Below, piece after piece: positions 1-58,931 of a stretch of 64,000 bases of DNA. The position numbers and the translations under genes are program-made. Source of the DNA: Kiritimatiellia bacterium (GTDB lineage Bacteria > Verrucomicrobiota > Kiritimatiellia > CAIQIC01 > Lenti-01); assembly GCA_050176815.1 (NCBI GenBank), contig JBFXHR010000004.1:19927-83926 (forward strand), in the 5' to 3' direction. A model generated the notes under the pieces. It was not told where the DNA came from. It worked only from the letters and a program-made list of their open reading frames with translations, and did no database searches. The first letter of the stretch is position 1. Each line of letters begins with the position of its first letter.

Positions 1-693
1 CCCGTCTTTCTTCACGGCTTGCAGCGCCTGCGGGAATTGACCGGCGCGTCGATCCAGGGCAAGAAGATGTTGGACGTCGGATGCGGGATGGGGCTGTTTC
101 TGGAGATCGTCCAGGAACAGGGCGGCGTTCCCTACGGCCTCGATCTCACGCCGGAGGCCGTCCAGTTCACCCGCGAACTGTGCAAAATCGATACCGTTGC
201 GCAAGGCTACTTCGAGACCTGCGATTATCCGCCGGGGTCTTTCGACGTCATCGCCGGGTGGGGGATTCTCCATCATACCCGGAGCCCCAGCCAGTGGTTT
301 GCGCAAGCGTACCGGTTGCTGGCCGATGGGGGGACCCTGCTGGTGAAAATGCCCAACGTCTCCTTCACGTCCGCGGCCTATCGCTTGACCCCCTTGCTGC
401 GGGCGCTGGGCCTGCCTGCGACCCACTATTTGGCTTCGAGGCCGCCGCTGAACCTCTACGGATTCACGCGCGAAACGCTGGCGGCGCTGCTGGAGAAAGC
501 GTCGTTCGAGGTGCTGTCGGTCGAAAGCGCCCGCATCCGGGGGAACGCGGGATTCCTGGGCGGACTCACGTCGGCGGCAACGGCCCTCGCGACCGGCTTG
601 ACGGGCGGCAAGGTCAATTTCCATCCCGGCATTTTGGCCATCGCGAGAAAACCCGGGACGCCAACCGGCGTTCAACCCCCGCAGGCGCCATGA
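1..693 (+). CDS. class I SAM-dependent methyltransferase (5' end may lie upstream of window)
   Basis: ORF 19..693 has the SAM-binding motif LDVGCGMGLF and acidic loop GLDL. The TTG at 19 could be internal because the frame is open to the window edge. Confidence 0.65.
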   Translation, partial: PVFLHGLQRLRELTGASIQGKKMLDVGCGMGLFLEIVQEQGGVPYGLDLTPEAVQFTRELCKIDTVAQGYFETCDYPPGSFDVIAGWGILHHTRSPSQWFAQAYRLLADGGTLLVKMPNVSFTSAAYRLTPLLRALGLPATHYLASRPPLNLYGFTRETLAALLEKASFEVLSVESARIRGNAGFLGGLTSAATALATGLTGGKVNFHPGILAIARKPGTPTGVQPPQAP

Positions 694-6669: not shown

Positions 6670-7515
6670 ATGCCGTTGGTTTGCACAGTGGACGTCGAGG
6701 ACTGGGCGCAGTCCACCCTCGATACGGAAATGCCGATTTCGGATCGCGCGGGGCCCAACATGGAGCATTTGCTCGACGTGCTGGCGGAAGAAAAGACCAA
6801 AGCCACCTGTTTCGTTCTGGGGAAATTCGCCGAGAAGTTCCCGGCCTGCGTGAAGCGGATCGCCGCGGAAGGGCACGAAGTGGCCTCGCACGGCTACGGG
6901 CACGTGGACGTCTTCCGGCTTTCGCCGACGCAGTTCCGGGAGGACGTCCGCCGGTCCAAGGGGCAGTTGGAGGCGTTGACGGGCGCGGCGGTGATGGGCT
7001 ATCGCGCGCCGGATTTCTCGATCGTGAAGGAATCGCTGTGGGCGTTGGACGTGCTGGCGGAGGAGGGGTTCGCCTACGACGCGAGCATCAATCCGGCGGT
7101 GCTGGCGCGCTTCGGCGTGCCCGATTTTCCGGCGCAGCCGGTGCGCCTGGCGCTGGCGGGCGGCTTGAGCCTGGTGGAATTGCCGGTGGCGACGCTGCCG
7201 GTATTGGGGCGGAAATTCCCCGTGGCGGGCGGGGGCTACCATCGGTTGCTGCCGTTCCCGGCCATCCGCTGGGTGGTCGAACGGGTGGTGCTGGCGGGCG
7301 AGGTCTTCATGGCCTACTGCCATCCGTACGAGTTCGATCCGGACGAGTTCGCCCATCTGGGCTATCCGTTGCCGCTGAAGACCCGCCTGCACCAGGGGCT
7401 GGGGCGGCGGGGATTCGAGGGCAAGTTCCGGCGGATGCTGCGGGAATTCGAGACCACCTTGGCCGGGCAAGTCGCCGAGACAGCAACGAATGAGGCCCCG
7501 GTCTACGAAGCGTGA
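6670..7515 (+). CDS. polysaccharide deacetylase (CE4), PEP-CTERM/EPS-locus subfamily
   Basis: NodB-homology motifs VDVEDW, HGYGH and RAPDF; 281 aa, as in EPS-locus deacetylases. Confidence 0.8.
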   Translation: MPLVCTVDVEDWAQSTLDTEMPISDRAGPNMEHLLDVLAEEKTKATCFVLGKFAEKFPACVKRIAAEGHEVASHGYGHVDVFRLSPTQFREDVRRSKGQLEALTGAAVMGYRAPDFSIVKESLWALDVLAEEGFAYDASINPAVLARFGVPDFPAQPVRLALAGGLSLVELPVATLPVLGRKFPVAGGGYHRLLPFPAIRWVVERVVLAGEVFMAYCHPYEFDPDEFAHLGYPLPLKTRLHQGLGRRGFEGKFRRMLREFETTLAGQVAETATNEAPVYEA

Positions 7516-7529
7516 ACCCAGAACAGCCG

Positions 7530-7600
7530 GCTACGGATTTCGCAGATGGCGCGGATTCGATCCCGAAACCCTTGGATTATCGATCCGCGCAATCCGTAGC
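7530..7600. repeat. palindromic hairpin repeat, copy 1 (GCTACGGATT...GCGCGGAT / ATCCGCGC...AATCCGTAGC)
   Basis: Internal inverted repeat with two stem modules; a second copy lies at 8020..8100 in the same orientation. Confidence 0.8.
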
Positions 7601-7623
7601 TTGATTCAGAAAGGCATGCGGAT

Positions 7624-8007
7624 ATGGAACTGTTGTACAAAGAGATCACGGAACAGATCATCGGCGCGGCCTATGAGGTCTATCGTGTTTTGGGGTATGG
7701 ATTTCTTGAAAAAATCTACCAGCGGGCGATGGTGGTGGAATTGGAATTGCGCGGACTCATGGCTCAGCCCGAAGCCTCGGCCAAAGTGTTTTTCAAAGAC
7801 GTGTGCGTAGGCGACTATTCAGCGGACCTCTTTGTCGGGGAGAAGGTCGTTGTAGAGCTGAAAGTCGCGCGAGAACTGAATCCGGCGGATGAAGCGCAGT
7901 TGATCAACGAACTGCTGTCGACGAGACAGGAAGTGGGTATGCTCATCAACTTCGGACGCGCAGGTGTCCAATTCAAACGCGCAGTCAATCAACAGAACAA
8001 CGGATGA
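7624..8007 (+). CDS. GxxExxY protein (PD-(D/E)XK-fold, PDDEXK_3-like)
   Basis: 127 aa containing GAAYEVY (GxxExxY) and the conserved D/ELK motif. Local GC is lower than in flanking genes. Confidence 0.8.
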   Translation: MELLYKEITEQIIGAAYEVYRVLGYGFLEKIYQRAMVVELELRGLMAQPEASAKVFFKDVCVGDYSADLFVGEKVVVELKVARELNPADEAQLINELLSTRQEVGMLINFGRAGVQFKRAVNQQNNG

Positions 8008-8019
8008 TGATCGGGACAA

Positions 8020-8100
8020 GCTACGGATTTCGCGAATGGCGCGGATCGGAAATCTATTCAGGCCTTTAGATTGATCCGCGAAATCCGCGCAATCCGTAGC
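8020..8100. repeat. palindromic hairpin repeat, copy 2
   Basis: Shares the GCTACGGATTTCGC..ATGGCGCGGAT and ATCCGCGCAATCCGTAGC modules with copy 1. Confidence 0.8.
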
Positions 8101-8124
8101 TCAATGTATCCGAATGCCTAGTCT

Positions 8125-8811
8125 ATGACAAAGGGTCAAGCCATCCTCAAGCGGGTTTTCGACTTTTCCGCAGCTCTGGTCGGTCTTGTCGTGCTGTCGC
8201 CGGCGATGCTGGCCATCGCCGTTCTCGTGCGGGCGACGTCGTCCGGACCGGCACTGTTCATCCAGGAGCGGGTGGGGCGGCACGGCCGGAAGTTCCGCTG
8301 CGCGAAATTCCGAACGATGAGCATGGGCGCGCAGGCGCAGGGCACCGTCACGACGGCGACGGACGCGCGGGTGACGCCGCTCGGGCGCTGGCTGCGCCGG
8401 TGGAAGCTGGACGAGCTGCCGCAGTTGGGAAACGTGCTGGCGGGGCGGATGTCGTTCGTGGGGCCGCGTCCCGACGTGCCCGGCTATGCGGACCGGCTGC
8501 AGGGCGACGACCGTCGGATTCTCGAATTGCGGCCAGGCATCACGGGCCCGGCCACGCTGCTGTTCCGCGACGAAGAGCGGTTGCTGGCGCTGGCGCGCAA
8601 TCCGCAGGCCTTCAACGACGCGGTGGTCTTTCCCGAAAAGGTGCGCCTCAACCGCGAATATCTGGAGAACGGCGGCTTTTGGCGCGACCTGGGCTATGTT
8701 CTCGCGACGGTTTGGCCGGGTCTGACGCGGCGGCTGGGTTGGAATCGGCGGCTTGGTTTGGATTTCGAATCTTTTTCCGCCCGCATGGAGCGGGAAGCCC
8801 GTTGTTTTTGA
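8125..8811 (+). CDS. polyprenyl-phosphate sugar-1-phosphate transferase (bacterial sugar transferase, EpsL/WbaP C-terminal-domain type)
   Basis: 228 aa with a single N-terminal TM segment. Has the conserved KFRTM, DELPQL and SFVGPRP motifs of the Bac_transf family. Confidence 0.85.
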   Translation: MTKGQAILKRVFDFSAALVGLVVLSPAMLAIAVLVRATSSGPALFIQERVGRHGRKFRCAKFRTMSMGAQAQGTVTTATDARVTPLGRWLRRWKLDELPQLGNVLAGRMSFVGPRPDVPGYADRLQGDDRRILELRPGITGPATLLFRDEERLLALARNPQAFNDAVVFPEKVRLNREYLENGGFWRDLGYVLATVWPGLTRRLGWNRRLGLDFESFSARMEREARCF

Positions 8812-8835
8812 GCGAAAAATTCCATTGTTATTTTC

Positions 8836-8864
8836 GTGACAATTGGCAGGGGGGGGGGTATCTA
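8836..8864 (+). promoter_or_regulatory. candidate sigma70-like promoter (GTGACA-17 nt-TATCTA) with a G10 tract in the spacer
   Basis: -35-like GTGACA at 8836-8841 and -10-like TATCTA at 8859-8864, 17 nt apart. The spacer contains GGGGGGGGGG at 8849-8858. It lies about 75 nt upstream of the 8940 gene. Confidence 0.3.
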
Positions 8865-8939
8865 CATGCTTGGTTCGAATGGTCTCGGGGCGGCGCGGAC
8901 GTCGCTTGCCGCGATTTTGAAAATAACAGGAGAAACGGG

Positions 8940-9527
8940 ATGAAGAAGTTGTGCATGGCGATGGCCGCAATGGCGCTGTTCGTTGCGGGTTCCGTTCAAG
9001 CGGCGGACGAGGCGGGAGAACTGGTCAGTCTCAAGTCGGGCGAAATCTCCTTTACGCTGCTGCAAAGCGACGGCGTGACGCCGATGAGCGCGGCTCCGAT
9101 CAAGATGTTGGCCACCGACGACGGCCGAGTGCTGGTGGAAGCGGTCTCGGACCATCTGGGACAGGCCGCCGTGGCGTTGTCCGAAGGCCGGTATTTGCTG
9201 AACGTGTCTGGGCGCACGCTGGCCGTGCTGGAAGCGACCGCCGCCGCCGCGACGACTTCTTGCCGCGTGGTGATTCCCGATGCCGCCCTGATGGTGGCGG
9301 GCGAGGAAGGCGAAGAGGGCGATGAAGTTGCCGGCGCACCGGTTTGGCTGAAGCCCGTGCTGATTGGCGGAGTGGTGGTGCTGGTGGCCGGCGGCGCCTA
9401 TGCCATCTACGACAACAACGACGACGATGACGACGGCGACGGAGACGACGGCGAAGACGAAGGTCTCGGCGGGGCTCCGACGAGCGACGACGACATCGAC
9501 GACCGCGAGCCGCCCAGTCGTCTGTAG
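8940..9527 (+). CDS. hypothetical secreted/membrane protein with C-terminal TM helix and poly-Asp/Glu tail
   Basis: AGGAGAAACGGG precedes the ATG. Signal peptide MKKLCMAMAAMALFVAGSVQA, a TM helix VLIGGVVVLVAGGAYAIY, then the DNNDDDDDGDGDDGEDEG tail. Confidence 0.5.
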   Translation: MKKLCMAMAAMALFVAGSVQAADEAGELVSLKSGEISFTLLQSDGVTPMSAAPIKMLATDDGRVLVEAVSDHLGQAAVALSEGRYLLNVSGRTLAVLEATAAAATTSCRVVIPDAALMVAGEEGEEGDEVAGAPVWLKPVLIGGVVVLVAGGAYAIYDNNDDDDDGDGDDGEDEGLGGAPTSDDDIDDREPPSRL

Positions 9528-9652
9528 GCGATCGTTTCCCGAGAATGGGGCGCTTGGTGGAATCAATTCCTCCGGGCGCCCTTTTTCAGTCGGGGGTTGG
9601 ATGGGGAAACGAGATGGCGGGGGATAAGAGACGGCTGCGAGGGAAAGGATGG

Positions 9653-10714
9653 ATGCTCATGAAATGGATTCTGGAACGGAAAAAACGGTGTGCGACGGCG
9701 GCGCTACTCGGCCTGATGGCCGCCGGCGGATGTTCGAGCTATCCGCGGGACTATTCTGAATCGTCGGCATTGTCGGCGAATCTGCTGGGCGAGGGGGGGG
9801 GCGAACCGGCGTTTTTCAGCGATGAATCCAGCATGAAGCAGGTGATGGCGACCAAGGAGCTGCTCTCGCTGCAGAAAGAGGAATACCGGGTGGGTCCGGA
9901 CGACGTGCTGGAAGTGAGCGTTTTCGAGTGGGAGGCGAACGACCAAACCAAGACGCTGCAACTGCGCGTGTCGGAAACGGGCGTCATCTCGCTGCCGACC
10001 GTGGGCGCCCTGGCGGTGGCCGGCAAGTCGGTGCAGGACATCCAGCGGACGATTGAAGAAGCGCTCATCCGGCAGAACGTGCTGCAGACGCCGCGGGTCG
10101 GCGTGTGGGTGAGCGAGTTCCGCAGCCGGCAGATTTCGGTGATCGGCGCCGTGAACCAGCCGGGGACCTACGCCATCCACCAGAACGTCTCCACGCTGCT
10201 GGACATGCTGACGCTGGCGGGCGGGCCTCAGGAATCGGCGGGCGGCGCGGCCTACGTGATCCGCCGCTCGGCGGGCAAGGCGGAATCGCGGATCCAGATC
10301 GATTTGGACGAGCTGCTGGAAAAGGGCGAGGCGGACTTGAATCCCGTGTTGAGCGCGGGAGACGTGGTCTACGTGCCGAAAGCCCCGTTGATCTACGTCT
10401 ATGGCGAAGTCAAGCAGGCGGGGGCGTTTACCTTCCGCAAGCGACTGCGCGTGCTGGAATCCATTGCGTTGGCCGGCGGGTTGAGCGACCTGGCGGACCG
10501 CCGGTCCGTCTCGCTCATCCGGCGTTCCGAAGCGGGCGAGGAGCGCTTGCACCAATTGGACCTGGGACGCATCGAGCGGGGCGCGGCCCCCAACATCTAT
10601 TTGCGCGACGGCGACGTGCTGCACGTGCGGGCCTCGGCGCCCAAGATGGTCTGGACGGAAGTGCTGTCGTTCGTCCGGGGCATCTTCACCTTCTCGTATT
10701 CGCTCAACAAGTGA
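9653..10714 (+). CDS. wza: polysaccharide export outer-membrane lipoprotein (Wza/EpsA family)
   Basis: Lipobox AAGGC; Poly_export and SLBB-type sequence (PDDVLEVSVF, GDVVYVPK). The start could be 9653 or 9659. Confidence 0.8.
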   Translation: MLMKWILERKKRCATAALLGLMAAGGCSSYPRDYSESSALSANLLGEGGGEPAFFSDESSMKQVMATKELLSLQKEEYRVGPDDVLEVSVFEWEANDQTKTLQLRVSETGVISLPTVGALAVAGKSVQDIQRTIEEALIRQNVLQTPRVGVWVSEFRSRQISVIGAVNQPGTYAIHQNVSTLLDMLTLAGGPQESAGGAAYVIRRSAGKAESRIQIDLDELLEKGEADLNPVLSAGDVVYVPKAPLIYVYGEVKQAGAFTFRKRLRVLESIALAGGLSDLADRRSVSLIRRSEAGEERLHQLDLGRIERGAAPNIYLRDGDVLHVRASAPKMVWTEVLSFVRGIFTFSYSLNK

Positions 10715-10762: not shown

Positions 10763-12931
10763 ATGGACGAATGGGAAAACGACGAAAACAAAGGGCTCCA
10801 TCTGCGGGACTATCTGGCGGTGGTGCGGCAGCGGTTGCCGGTTGCGGCGGGGACGTTCCTGCTGGTGCTTCTGGTGACGGTCCTGTACGCCTGGACGCGC
10901 ACGCCGCGCTACACGGCCACGTCCCGCCTGCTGGTCGAAAGCCGCGGCGTGAACCTGACGGCGATGCAGGACGCCTATGATCCGACCCGGACCAGCCTGA
11001 CCCAGCGGGACGTCATCCAGACGCAGGTGCAGCTCATCAAGTCCACCCCCGTGATGGAGGCGGTCTTGCAGCAGGGGTTCCTTGCGCAAAGCAAGGATTT
11101 CCGGGAATGCAAGGATCCCGTGCAAACCCTGGCCGAGATGATCCAGGTGACGCCCGCGCGCAGCGGCTACGTGCTGGACGTGAGCGTGGAGCGGGAAAAT
11201 CCAAAGGAAGCGGCCCAGATCGCGAACGCGGTCGTATCCGCGTATCTGGCGCAAAGCCGGCTCCGCCGCATGGGGGTTTCGGACGACGGCATCTCGGAAT
11301 TGAAAAAGAAGTCCGAGGAATTGCGGGCCCGGCTCGACCAGGCGACGGCGGATCTCCATGCCTTCATGGTGACGAACCGGATGGTGTCGTTCGAGGAGGC
11401 GCAGAACATCGTCGTGGAGCGGCTGAAGGGGCTGAACAACAACCTGATGAAGGCGGAACCGGCGCGGATGCAGGCGGAGGCCCATTTCCGGACGGCCGAG
11501 GCGGCCATGAAGGCCGGACAGACCGAAAGCATTCCCGGCGTTTTGGAGTCCACGCTGATCGGCGGGTTGAAGATGGACCTGTCGCGGCTCGAACAGCAAT
11601 TTTCGGAAATGCAGGCCCGGCTGGGCGCGAACCATCCGCAGTTGCAGAGCGTCGTCGCGCAGATCGATGCGTTGAGGACGAAGCTGGCCATGGAAGCGTC
11701 CCATATCGTCGATGCGTTGCGGGGGCGCTACGAACAGGCCCTGAACGAGGAAAAAATGCTTCGCGCGGAACTGTCGAAGCAAGAAGAGGCCGTGCTGGAA
11801 TTCAACGAGCTGGCCGCCAAATACAACCTGTTTCGGCAAAGCCGCGATTCCGTCCAGGAAGCCTACTCGGCCATCATTCGCCGCATCGACGAACTGAGCG
11901 TCGGCCAATTGAGCGGACAGGGCGACAACGTGTTCGTCGTGTCGCGCGCGGAAGTGCCCCAGATCAAGTCGTGGCCCTCCCGGGGGCGGATGCTGCTGAT
12001 GGGCGTTTTCTTCGGCGGGCTTTTGGCCGTTGGATTCTGCTTCTTCCTCGACTACATGGATACGACGATCAAGGGCGAGGCCGACGTCCGCAATTTGCTC
12101 GGCAGTCCCGTCATCGGCGGCGTGCCTTCCGCCGAAAAAGAGGCCGGCGCGGAGGCGTTCGACGATTTGTTCGCCTTGAAAGCGCCGCGCAGCCATTTCG
12201 CCGAAGCGTTCCGATCGGCGCGGACGTCGCTGGCCTTCAGTTCCACGGACAAGCCCCTGCGTTCGCTGGTCGTCACCAGCACGATGCCGGCGGAGGGCAA
12301 GACGCTGTGCGCCGTCAATCTCGCCATTGCCCATGCCCAGGCGGGAAAGCGGACCTTGCTGGTGGATACGGACATGCGGAAGCCCCGGCTCGACAAGGTC
12401 TTCAAGTTCCGGAGCGACGTGGGCCTCTCCAACCTTCTCGCTTCGGGTTCGATGGATCCGGAATCGGTGATCGGGAAAACGGACGTGGAAAACCTGTTTT
12501 ATCTGCCGACGGGCCCCGTTCCGCCCAATCCCGTGGAAATGCTGGATTCCGAGCGGTTCGGCAAGCTCATCGAAGTCTTGCTGAAGACGTACGAATTGCT
12601 CATCTTCGATTCGCCGCCCTCGTTGAATCTGGTGGATGCGCTGGTCATCGGCAAGCGCGTGGACGGACTGGTGCTGGTGGCGCGCACGTTCGTGACGAAC
12701 AAGTTCGCGGCGCAGCAGGTGGCCCGGCAGATTGCCGCGTCCAAGGTGAAGATGCTGGGCGTGGTGCTCAACAACGTGGACATGCCGGCGGGAACCTATT
12801 ATTCCTCCTATTATTACGGGCGCTACGGGAGCTACTACGTGGCGGAGGGGCCGTCGGCGAAACCGGGGCGCCTCGGGCCGTTGGCGGCGTGGGCGGCCCG
12901 CTGGTCCGGAGGGCGGAAGCGGAGGTCATGA
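10763..12931 (+). CDS. wzc: chain-length determinant / BY-kinase tyrosine autokinase (Wzc/EpsB family)
   Basis: Two TM segments with periplasmic coiled-coil; Walker A AEGKTL; C-terminal tyrosine cluster YYSSYYYGRYGSYY. Confidence 0.85.
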   Translation: MDEWENDENKGLHLRDYLAVVRQRLPVAAGTFLLVLLVTVLYAWTRTPRYTATSRLLVESRGVNLTAMQDAYDPTRTSLTQRDVIQTQVQLIKSTPVMEAVLQQGFLAQSKDFRECKDPVQTLAEMIQVTPARSGYVLDVSVERENPKEAAQIANAVVSAYLAQSRLRRMGVSDDGISELKKKSEELRARLDQATADLHAFMVTNRMVSFEEAQNIVVERLKGLNNNLMKAEPARMQAEAHFRTAEAAMKAGQTESIPGVLESTLIGGLKMDLSRLEQQFSEMQARLGANHPQLQSVVAQIDALRTKLAMEASHIVDALRGRYEQALNEEKMLRAELSKQEEAVLEFNELAAKYNLFRQSRDSVQEAYSAIIRRIDELSVGQLSGQGDNVFVVSRAEVPQIKSWPSRGRMLLMGVFFGGLLAVGFCFFLDYMDTTIKGEADVRNLLGSPVIGGVPSAEKEAGAEAFDDLFALKAPRSHFAEAFRSARTSLAFSSTDKPLRSLVVTSTMPAEGKTLCAVNLAIAHAQAGKRTLLVDTDMRKPRLDKVFKFRSDVGLSNLLASGSMDPESVIGKTDVENLFYLPTGPVPPNPVEMLDSERFGKLIEVLLKTYELLIFDSPPSLNLVDALVIGKRVDGLVLVARTFVTNKFAAQQVARQIAASKVKMLGVVLNNVDMPAGTYYSSYYYGRYGSYYVAEGPSAKPGRLGPLAAWAARWSGGRKRRS

Positions 12932-56942: not shown

Positions 56943-58931
56943 ATGCCGGCCGAACCTTCCAGTTTTCTTTTCCTTTTGCTTTGGGCCGGCGGCCTTCTGG
57001 CGCTGACGGGCGCGGCATCGGTCTGGGCCGGGCGCTGGTCGGAGCGCACCGCCGTGGCGATCGGCGCGGCCGGGGCGGTGGCCGCGTGCGGCGCGGGGCT
57101 GGTGGCCGCGATCGCGGCGCTGGCCGGGGGAACGTCTTGCGCGCTGGCGCTGCCGTGGAGCCTGCCCTACGGGGAATTCCGGATCGGGCTCGATCCCCTG
57201 AGCGCGTTTTTCCTGATCCCGACCTTCCTGCTGTCGGGCTTGGCGGCCATCTACTCCATCGGATATTTCCAGCCTTGGAACGGGCGCAATCCGGGACGAT
57301 TCTGGTTTTTCTACAATGCGCTGGTCGCCAGCATGGCGCTCGTGCTGCTGGCGCGCAACGGCGTGCTGTTCCTGGTGGCGTGGGAGGCGATGTCGCTGGC
57401 TTCGTTCTTCCTCGTGATTTTCGACGACGCGGAACCGGGCGTAACCGACGCGGGATGGACCTATCTGGTGGCGGCGCACGTCGGGACGGCGTTCCTGATG
57501 GCGCTGTTCATGTTGTTGGGTCGTGCAGGCGGTTCGCAGGATTTTGCCGCGTACGCCGCGCCGGCGGGATCGGCGGGCCTGTTGTTCGTTCTGGCGCTGG
57601 TTGGATTCGGCACGAAGGCGGGCCTGTTTCCGCTGCACGTGTGGCTGCCCGAGGCGCACCCGGCGGCGCCCAGTCCCGTGTCGGCGGTGATGTCGGGCGT
57701 GATGATCAAGACGGGCATCTACGGGATCGTCCGCACGCTGGTTCTCCTGGGCGCCGTTCCCGGCTGGTGCGCGTGGCTGGTTCTGGGCCTTGGCGCGGTT
57801 TCGGGCGTCCTCGGCGTGCTGTTCGCGCTGGCGCAGCACGATCTCAAGCGCCTGCTGGCCTATCACAGCGTCGAGAACGTCGGCATCATCGCGCTTGGAA
57901 TCGGCATGGGCATGCTGGGCGTTCACTGCCGTTCCCCCGCCGTCGCGGTTCTCGGTTTTGCCGGCGGATTGCTGCACGTGCTGAATCACGCGACGTTCAA
58001 GGGGCTGCTCTTCCTCGGGGCCGGTGCGGTGGCGCATGCCGCCGGCACGCGCGACGTCGAAAAACTGGGCGGCCTGCTCCGGCGCATGCCGTGGACGGGC
58101 GCGGCCTTTCTGGCGGGTTCCGCCGCGATTTGCGGCCTTCCGCCGTTCAACGGTTTCGCCAGCGAATTCCTGATCTACGTCGGCGCGTTCAAGACGATTC
58201 TGGCTGGGGGGGGGATCGCCTTGGGCGGCGCGGTCGCCCTGGTCGCCCTGGCGCTGATCGGCGGTCTGGCGGCGGCGTGTTTCGCCAAGGCGTTTGGAAT
58301 CGTTTTCCTCGGCGAGCCGCGCTCGCCGGCGGCGGCCAACGCCCGCGAAACGGGAGGATCGATGCGGTGGCCCATGGCGTTGCTGGCGGCGCTGTGCCTG
58401 GCGATTGGCCTCGCCGTGGGTTTCGCGGTGCGCTTCCTGGAACCCGCCGTTGCCATGCTGGTGGATTCCGCCGCGGCGGCGGAAGCCGCCCGCTGGGCGG
58501 ATCCCGTTTCGGTCGGCGCGCTTTGGCTGGCGCTGCTGGCGCTGGTAGCGGGACTGGTCTTGGTTCGCCGCGGGTTGCTGGCCAAGCGTTCCGTTCGGGA
58601 AACGGCCACGTGGGATTGCGGCTACGCGGCGCCTTCGGCCCGCATGCAATACACGGCGACGGGCTTCGCCCAGCCGTTGACGCACGGCGCGCAGGCCCTC
58701 CTGCGTTCCCATCTGGAATTCCATCCGCCGCGCGGGGTTTTTCCGGATTCCGCCTCGTTCCATTCCGAGACGCGGGACCTCGCGCGGGCCAACCTCTTCG
58801 AGCCGTTGTTCCGGACGACGGCGGATCTGCTGGGACGGTTGCGCTGGCTGCAGCAGGGCCGGGTCCATTTCTACGTCCTGTACATCGTCGTGGTCTTGAT
58901 GGTTCTGCTGGCCTGGGCGCTTCGGCCATGA
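56943..58931 (+). CDS. group-4 hydrogenase-like membrane subunit B (NuoL/HyfB-like antiporter subunit)
   Basis: 662 aa with about 16 TM helices; WLPEAHPAAPSPVSA motif. Confidence 0.85.
   Translation: MPAEPSSFLFLLLWAGGLLALTGAASVWAGRWSERTAVAIGAAGAVAACGAGLVAAIAALAGGTSCALALPWSLPYGEFRIGLDPLSAFFLIPTFLLSGLAAIYSIGYFQPWNGRNPGRFWFFYNALVASMALVLLARNGVLFLVAWEAMSLASFFLVIFDDAEPGVTDAGWTYLVAAHVGTAFLMALFMLLGRAGGSQDFAAYAAPAGSAGLLFVLALVGFGTKAGLFPLHVWLPEAHPAAPSPVSAVMSGVMIKTGIYGIVRTLVLLGAVPGWCAWLVLGLGAVSGVLGVLFALAQHDLKRLLAYHSVENVGIIALGIGMGMLGVHCRSPAVAVLGFAGGLLHVLNHATFKGLLFLGAGAVAHAAGTRDVEKLGGLLRRMPWTGAAFLAGSAAICGLPPFNGFASEFLIYVGAFKTILAGGGIALGGAVALVALALIGGLAAACFAKAFGIVFLGEPRSPAAANARETGGSMRWPMALLAALCLAIGLAVGFAVRFLEPAVAMLVDSAAAAEAARWADPVSVGALWLALLALVAGLVLVRRGLLAKRSVRETATWDCGYAAPSARMQYTATGFAQPLTHGAQALLRSHLEFHPPRGVFPDSASFHSETRDLARANLFEPLFRTTADLLGRLRWLQQGRVHFYVLYIVVVLMVLLAWALRP

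Follow-up and report, generated by a model that had tools for sequence, protein, structure and literature searches.

A poly-G tract in the spacer of a probable sigma70-like promoter of an exopolysaccharide export operon in Kiritimatiellia: constant spacing among close relatives

Introduction

Ten consecutive G residues lie between two promoter-like hexamers, ahead of a gene whose product ends in a poly-Asp tail, in a stretch of DNA from a Kiritimatiellia bacterium. Is such a homopolymer a switch, or is it a fixed part of an ordinary promoter? A sequence-only reading of this DNA had proposed phase variation through slipped-strand changes in the tract. In such a phase-variable or rheostat promoter G10 would slip to G9 or G11, the spacing would change to 16 or 18 nt, and the export operon downstream would be switched on and off or tuned in subpopulations. 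The poly-G promoter of porA offers a precedent for such a mechanism (PMC3899988). Here we examine this proposal, together with its rivals, by comparing the whole 64,000-nt stretch that was analysed (the window) with the corresponding loci of relatives, which are labelled L001-L032.

Results

The locus and its export operon

Pfam and NCBIfam domains identify the locus as an exopolysaccharide cluster. Its features are listed below in the coordinates of the window, with the basis of each in brackets.

6670-7515: polysaccharide deacetylase with DUF3473 (domain match)
7624-8007: GxxExxY/PDDEXK_3 gene, between the deacetylase and the priming transferase (domain match)
8125-8811, + strand: polyprenyl glycosylphosphotransferase (Bac_transf), the priming transferase (PF02397, E 2e-53)
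8812-8832, + strand: A/T-rich stretch at a presumed UP-element position, adjoining the -35-like block on its 5' side (sequence)
8833-8841, + strand: conserved -35-like block TTCGTGACA, with the hexamer GTGACA at 8836-8841 (alignment with relatives)
8842-8858, + strand: 17-nt spacer ATTGGCAGGGGGGGGGG, made up of ATTGGCA and G10 (sequence)
8849-8858, + strand: G10 homopolymer, which fills the 3' part of the spacer up to the -10-like hexamer (sequence)
8859-8864, + strand: weak -10-like hexamer TATCTA (sequence)
8865-8939, + strand: putative 5' untranslated leader of about 70 nt (sequence)
8928-8932, + strand: strong Shine-Dalgarno sequence AGGAG, within the leader and ahead of the ATG at 8940 (sequence)
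8940-9527, + strand: first operon gene, encoding a 195-aa protein (translation)
9659-10714, + strand: second gene, Wza-like outer-membrane polysaccharide export protein (Poly_export and SLBB domains)
10763-12931, + strand: third gene, Wzc-like chain-length determinant/tyrosine autokinase (Wzz, GNVR and AAA_31)

The Wzc-like gene matches TIGR01007 above the cut-off (E 1.7e-52), while the matches of the Wza-like gene to EpsE and pepcterm_export, and of the Bac_transf gene to the NCBIfam model EPS_sugtrans, fall below theirs. The XrtA/PEP-CTERM exopolysaccharide models for the deacetylase, export protein, chain-length determinant and kinase (TIGR03006, TIGR03027, TIGR03007 and TIGR03018) also match, each below its curated cut-off. 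All loci long enough to show gene order have the small gene followed by the wza-like and wzc-like genes. The genes downstream of the candidate promoter specify a surface structure, namely Wza-/Wzc-like export plus a secreted or membrane small protein, and a surface polysaccharide export machine is a target that would suit phase variation. The Bac_transf gene (8125-8811) lies outside this conserved unit, and an exact-protein look-up of the transferase returned no record. L018 and L026, syntenic in other respects, lack the GxxExxY/PDDEXK_3 gene and have the deacetylase and transferase genes side by side, so that the gene looks like a lineage-specific insertion.

The 195-aa protein is identical to 'MAG: hypothetical protein AB7V14_02090 [Kiritimatiellia bacterium]'. 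It consists of a signal peptide, a beta-sandwich domain, an acidic linker, a membrane-spanning helix and a poly-Asp tail; the acidic tail reads YAIYDNNDDDD and is often followed by poly-Pro in relatives. It matched no Pfam or NCBIfam family. We found 32 homologues, the named members of which are Kiritimatiellia MAGs, and some of the homologue genome records are labelled Lentisphaerae or Spartobacteria. In the family alignment the beta-sandwich carries the invariant motif GRYLLNVSG. Residues 28-115 form a confident beta-sandwich in the AF2 model (pLDDT about 90), whose structure matches, to transthyretin-like, CnaB-like and carboxypeptidase-regulatory-like folds, are weak. Because the small gene always directly precedes the wza-like and wzc-like genes, its position suggests that the family is an accessory component of the polysaccharide export machine.

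A promoter-like element ahead of the small-protein gene

The sequence-only reading had described GTGACA-17 nt-TATCTA with G10 at 8849-8858 ahead of the poly-Asp-tail gene, and these coordinates are exact. It had also called the intergenic segment AT-richer, as indeed it is, with 52% GC in 8812-8939 (48% without the tract) against about 63-65% in the window. The distance of 17 nt between the hexamers is within the sigma70 spacer range of 17 +/- 1 nt, and it is in favour of phase variation that the tract sits precisely between the -35-like and -10-like elements, where G10 gives the optimal 17 nt. The hexamer pair matches the sigma70 consensus at 8/12 positions, 5/6 in GTGACA and 3/6 in TATCTA, the latter having the A at position 2 and missing the final T at position 6, which is usually critical. 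A promoter/terminator consensus scan of 7400-10000 did not call the pair, and a search of the whole window for TTGACN-16..18-TANNNT returned zero canonical sigma70 sites; because the window holds no such site, it does not reveal the host's own promoter consensus. At the end of the upstream gene, a terminator-like hairpin at 8789-8803 is weak, and terminator-like sites in 7400-10000 are no commoner than in shuffled sequence, so that some read-through from that gene may occur.

The weak -10, the failure of the consensus scan to call the pair and the lack of canonical sites in the window could be taken to mean that the block is not a promoter at all. The operon would then be transcribed from further upstream, and the block would be an operator, a read-through RNA element or a recombination/insertion boundary. 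Nearly all genes from 19 to about 35000 are co-directional, which makes long polycistronic transcripts possible, and the conserved block coincides with a synteny boundary, both of which fit this alternative. An RNA element, however, finds little in the leader to build on. A permissive Rfam scan of 7400-10000 gave sub-threshold miRNA noise alone. In each orthologue the leader forms some hairpin 25-50 nt ahead of the start codon, but the fold of the window leader is no more stable than those of shuffled sequences (z +0.46) and RNAalifold on a MAFFT alignment of the leaders found no consensus pairs; a conserved leader RNA structure was dropped on these two grounds.

Two further readings of the same nucleotides were tried and rejected. 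For a sigma54 promoter (TGGCAC-N5-TTGCW), TGGCAG at 8844-8849 is followed by GGGGG and GGGGT, without the -12 GC, and TGGCA is missing in L004 and L022, so that the motif is not conserved. For reiterative transcription from a start inside the G run, with GACAAT as a putative -10, there is no acceptable -35 at 16-18 nt.

Conservation of the promoter-like block in relatives

Alignment with relatives shows that CGTGACA is invariant in 6/6 sequences from five lineages, with 59-83% identity between their small proteins and that of the window, and that it is the longest invariant intergenic block in those five lineages. The wider motif TYCGTGACA likewise holds in all five. The DNA 5' of the block is also A/T-rich in L026, L004 and L022. 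On the 3' side of the spacer the aligned lineages have a hexamer starting with TA (TATCTA in L026, TATTTA in L002, TAGCAT in L004 and TAAATC in L022), and that of L004, with both key -10 bases (the A at position 2 and the final T), is the better -10. The window, L026-L030 and L022 have a spacer of 17 nt, L004 has one of 18 nt, and the unreliable assemblies L002/L003 have one of 15 nt. Comparison with the sister species (L026) shows how strongly this core is held: 35/37 positions of 8833-8869 are identical and there is no gap, against an identity of 77% for the leader, 76% for the 5' intergenic part, 77% for the upstream coding sequence and 86% for the small-protein coding sequence.

More distant orthologues, at 61-68% identity, have TTGACC-17-TCTAAT (L007), TTGACT-17-TTCATT (L008), TTGACC-17-TTCAAC (L006 group) and TTGACA-16-AATACT preceded by TGG (L023). 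These -35 sites precede the orthologous start codon by roughly comparable distances (about 70-110 nt). The sites of L007 and L023 are good sigma70 matches, which speaks against the view that the block is no promoter. The gene upstream of the block varies, being Bac_transf in the window, L018 and L026, an opposite-strand IS30-like HTH_38 gene in L002, and VanZ in L004, and in the L006 group conservation begins abruptly about 26 nt 5' of the -35, with unrelated sequence beyond. Since the block travels with the operon under differing upstream genes, it behaves as the operon's own promoter would. In L002, moreover, the upstream IS30-like gene is on the opposite strand, so that read-through cannot supply transcription and the promoter must lie in the conserved block. 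With these observations and the lack of an Rfam match or a stable or conserved RNA fold, we regard transcription from further upstream, with some other function for the block, as quite unlikely. The recurrence of the element in relatives is the best evidence that it is not accidental, and the comparison makes a sigma70-like promoter at 8812-8864 probable.

The alignments also brought out repeats near the orthologous promoters. In the L006 lineage, a 15-nt A/T-rich unit, GCGAATAAATAATCW, lies directly 5' of the -35 TTGACC, at the UP-element position, in 1, 2 or about 2.7 tandem copies (L006:2370-2420, L009, L013, L011 and L005). The loci with this unit are otherwise identical from the repeat to the start codon, and the DNA beyond the repeat is unrelated. 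Here the UP-element position of the same operon, in a related lineage, is genuinely polymorphic in copy number. In L002 (2690-2830), 5' of the block and beside the IS30-like gene, there are C-run/G-run palindromes, GCGCCCCCCCTCCCATGGGAGGGGGGGGGG and CGCCCCCTCCCTCCCGGGGAGGGGGCG; L005 and L011 have comparable CCCCCCTCCCCCCGGGGCGAGGGGGG hairpins upstream, and the hairpins of these three loci may belong to a dispersed repeat family.

Tract and spacer length across assemblies

If the tract were a slippage switch, its length would be expected to vary among close relatives. The Logan contig L001 (SRR27751817), from an independent assembly that possibly derives from the MAG's own source sample, is identical to the window, G10 included. 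The sister species, at 78% protein identity, is represented by six assemblies from different samples (L026-L031). Five of the six read CCGTGACA-ATTGGCAT-GGGGGGGGG-TATCTACATGC, with a 17-nt spacer formed by ATTGGCAT and G9 (L031 begins at CAT+G9). The sixth, L029, of low coverage, reads CCGTGACA-CTGGGCAA-GGGGGGGGG-TATCTACATGC, and here too CTGGGCAA and G9 add up to 17 nt; its four differing bases are in or just before the 5' half of the spacer and, at 0.8x coverage, may be errors. The spacer is therefore 7+10 = 17 nt in the window and 8+9 = 17 nt in the sister species, and G10 is separated from G9 by a T<->G substitution at the counterpart of position 8849, with no indel. Among the 8 consensus assemblies of the two species (window, L001 and L026-L031) there is no length variant of the tract. 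That all six sister-species assemblies combine G9 with 17 nt, that the window and L001 both have G10, and that a base substitution with unchanged spacing separates the two states all count against phase variation. The visible pattern is one of purifying selection on spacing, not of variation in spacing.

In more distant lineages tract and spacer lengths do vary, as phase variation would have it. L004 has G8 inside an 18-nt spacer, and L002/L003 have G8 and a 15-nt spacer. L022 keeps TTTCGTGACA and has a 17-nt G-rich spacer, AGAGCAGACGGGTGAGG, without a homopolymer, the 3' half being GACGGGTGAGG. The L002/L003 tract, however, comes from unreliable assemblies: over 3.8 kb, about 13 single-base indels in short homopolymers separate the two, a long-read error signature. 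Because of these mutual 1-nt homopolymer indels their tract length is untrustworthy, and we discounted their G8 as a slippage variant.

Several samples contain short low-coverage contigs that end 2-7 nt from the tract. Both L015 and L032 stop at the identical base, 7 nt 3' of it, L017 stops 2 nt 3' of it, and L031 begins 3 nt 5' of it. Such breaks could come from tract heterogeneity and have been counted in favour of phase variation. More probably, however, they reflect a technical drop in coverage or quality at poly-G, because a de Bruijn break arising from two length alleles should end contigs inside the run, whereas these ends lie outside it, and poly-G dropout at very low coverage fits them better. 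The same breaks could be cited for a more radical view, namely that the poly-G itself is spurious and was created by sequencing or assembly; two-colour Illumina chemistry is known to generate artefactual poly-G. Against this, the tract is internal to a long contig, is identical in the Logan assembly L001, and is found in many samples and in several species, where its position is homologous. An artefact is effectively refuted and we give it hardly any probability.

G-run statistics and strand composition

The sequence-only reading had called the G10 run conspicuous even in GC-rich DNA, which overstates the case on a G-skewed strand. The + strand of the window has 35.9% G and 29.3% C, and it is because of this excess that long G runs, and not C runs, are common here. 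For the 64 kb, 1 run of G>=10 was observed against 1.45 expected under an independent model (iid) or 0.88 under a first-order Markov model, 3 runs of G>=9 against 2.6-4.0, and 6 runs of G>=8 against 7.7-11.3. In the approximately 7.2 kb of intergenic DNA, 0.08-0.10 runs of G>=10 would be expected. G10 is thus mildly unusual for intergenic DNA and not beyond chance window-wide. Cumulative GC skew on the + strand climbs monotonically across 1-64000, a strong and uniform excess of G over C, and nearly all likely genes from 19 to about 35000 are on this strand.

All remaining G>=8 runs of the window are inside coding sequences, including a G8 run within the Polysacc_synt_2 dehydratase gene. The occurrence of G8-G9 runs in ordinary coding genes means that long G runs are not reserved here for switch-like or contingency loci, and the G9 runs in such genes weigh against phase variation. 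One G9, at 58206-58214, is within a Proton_antipo_M gene (NADH:quinone oxidoreductase/Mrp antiporter), which shows that this genome tolerates long G runs even in housekeeping coding sequence. Another, at 9793-9801, is within the wza-like coding sequence (codons GAG GGG GGG GGC, E-G-G-G), about 940 nt 3' of the promoter G10; it is not retained as a run in L003 or L004, and a one-base slip there would frameshift the exporter.

Discussion

The explanation we favour, with moderate confidence, is that 8812-8864 is the sigma70-like core promoter of the export operon and that G10 is part of a spacer of fixed length. The parts would follow one another as an A/T-rich upstream stretch, CGTGACA, a 17-nt spacer, the weak TATCTA, a leader of about 70 nt and a strong ribosome-binding site, and the promoter would drive the genes for the acidic-tail secreted or membrane protein, the Wza-like exporter and the Wzc-like kinase. 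Selection visibly preserves the 17-nt spacer length and the G-rich 3' half, not a variable tract. In principle G10 is prone to slippage, and one-base changes of spacing are known to alter promoter strength, for instance at the porA poly-G spacer (PMC3899988), so that a rheostat is mechanistically conceivable; in the available sequences, however, the run is a stable element of fixed length. Weak -10 elements and GC-rich spacers generally go with low basal activity or a need for an activator, and the combination found here suggests the same for this promoter.

Why at least 8 G residues are retained where other spacer bases have diverged is a further question. Comparison of the window with L004 raises the possibility that the run itself may be selected for something beyond spacing, and two of the rival explanations draw on this. 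Retention of a run would be expected under phase variation, if the run as such were selected. Equally, the G tract may be a selected cis-element of fixed sequence, either a regulator site or rigid or unusual DNA next to the -10, with a structure that would set promoter strength or dependence on supercoiling or an activator; length variation would have no part in it. For such an element it can be said that the window, L026, L002 and L004 all retain at least 8 G residues abutting the -10-like TA, even as the 5' spacer half has diverged (ATTGGCA vs GGCGGGAGGA), that the 3' half of the L022 spacer (GACGGGTGAGG) is still G-rich, and that the length is constant among the sister-species assemblies. 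On the other hand, the more distant orthologous promoters have no G tract. No palindrome was found at the promoter motif in the window, nor is there a second exact copy of TYCGTGACA, and one-mismatch matches are fewer than expected by chance. The + strand is G-rich throughout, so that a G-rich spacer may be compositional, and G10 alone cannot form a canonical four-tract quadruplex. We consider a fixed cis-element of this kind unlikely.

The earlier reading of the locus stands in its first half, since a promoter is supported by the conserved CGTGACA and the constant spacing; its second half, phase variation, did not gain support, given G9 with 17 nt in 6/6 sister assemblies and a G10 that differs from it by a substitution. 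Judged from consensus assemblies, phase variation is unproven and somewhat disfavoured, and its probability in our estimate is low. We also consider it improbable that the poly-G is a selected, slippage-prone rheostat for exopolysaccharide export whose 17-nt state is the majority 'on' state represented in consensus assemblies. We do not file the locus as a phase-variable promoter because length polymorphism among close relatives, a defining feature of that class, was not seen. A full-text literature search found no paper linking Kiritimatiellia/Kiritimatiellota with (simple-repeat) phase variation.

Variation of the tract, if it occurred, would bring to environmental Kiritimatiellia a mechanism familiar chiefly from host-adapted pathogens, and it would link exopolysaccharide export with population heterogeneity, which matters for biofilms, for resistance to phages and for flocculation in sediments and digesters. 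A true rheostat might be the first such case in a free-living anaerobe of the PVC group. Under the fixed-length spacer that we prefer, the interest lies elsewhere. The comparison defines a probable promoter architecture, CGTGACA/TTGACN with a 17-nt spacer and a weak -10 starting with TA, in a phylum whose promoters are essentially uncharacterised, and it recognises a conserved operon headed by an unannotated small-protein family. It also carries a caution, as a long G run on a G-skewed strand is by itself no evidence of a contingency locus.

Several well-known promoters provide a standard against which this element can be placed. In Neisseria meningitidis porA, a poly-G tract lies between the -35 and -10, and its length, which differs both between strains and within them, is correlated with transcript level (PMC3899988). 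As in porA, the G tract here is about 9-11 nt long, is inside the spacer of a cell-surface gene, and one-base changes would shift the 17-nt optimum; unlike porA, it shows no length variant in 8 assemblies of two species, and the difference between the species is a substitution. The poly-T 'rheostat' tract of Helicobacter pylori sabA, for which length polymorphism is documented, is next to the -35. The present tract resembles it as a homopolymer near core promoter elements that could tune rather than switch expression, but it is within the spacer, not beside the -35, and has no documented length polymorphism. Spacer-length switches are also formed by poly-C in Neisseria opc. In Haemophilus influenzae hifA/hifB the switch is a TA repeat (PMC3899988). 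Like the present element, opc and hifA/hifB have a simple repeat within or overlapping the promoter spacer; they belong, however, to host-adapted pathogens with many contingency loci, whereas ours is from an environmental Kiritimatiellia MAG in which other long G runs occur in ordinary coding genes. A closer likeness may be sought among sigma70-type promoters of Wza-Wzc (group 1 capsule/EPS) operons, with which the element shares a TTGACA-like -35, a 17-nt spacer, an A/T-rich upstream stretch, a leader and a Shine-Dalgarno sequence, and from which it differs in a first gene from an unmodelled small-protein family, a weak -10 and a long conserved G run in the spacer. It is thus probably best described as an ordinary sigma70-type promoter with a homopolymer-containing spacer.
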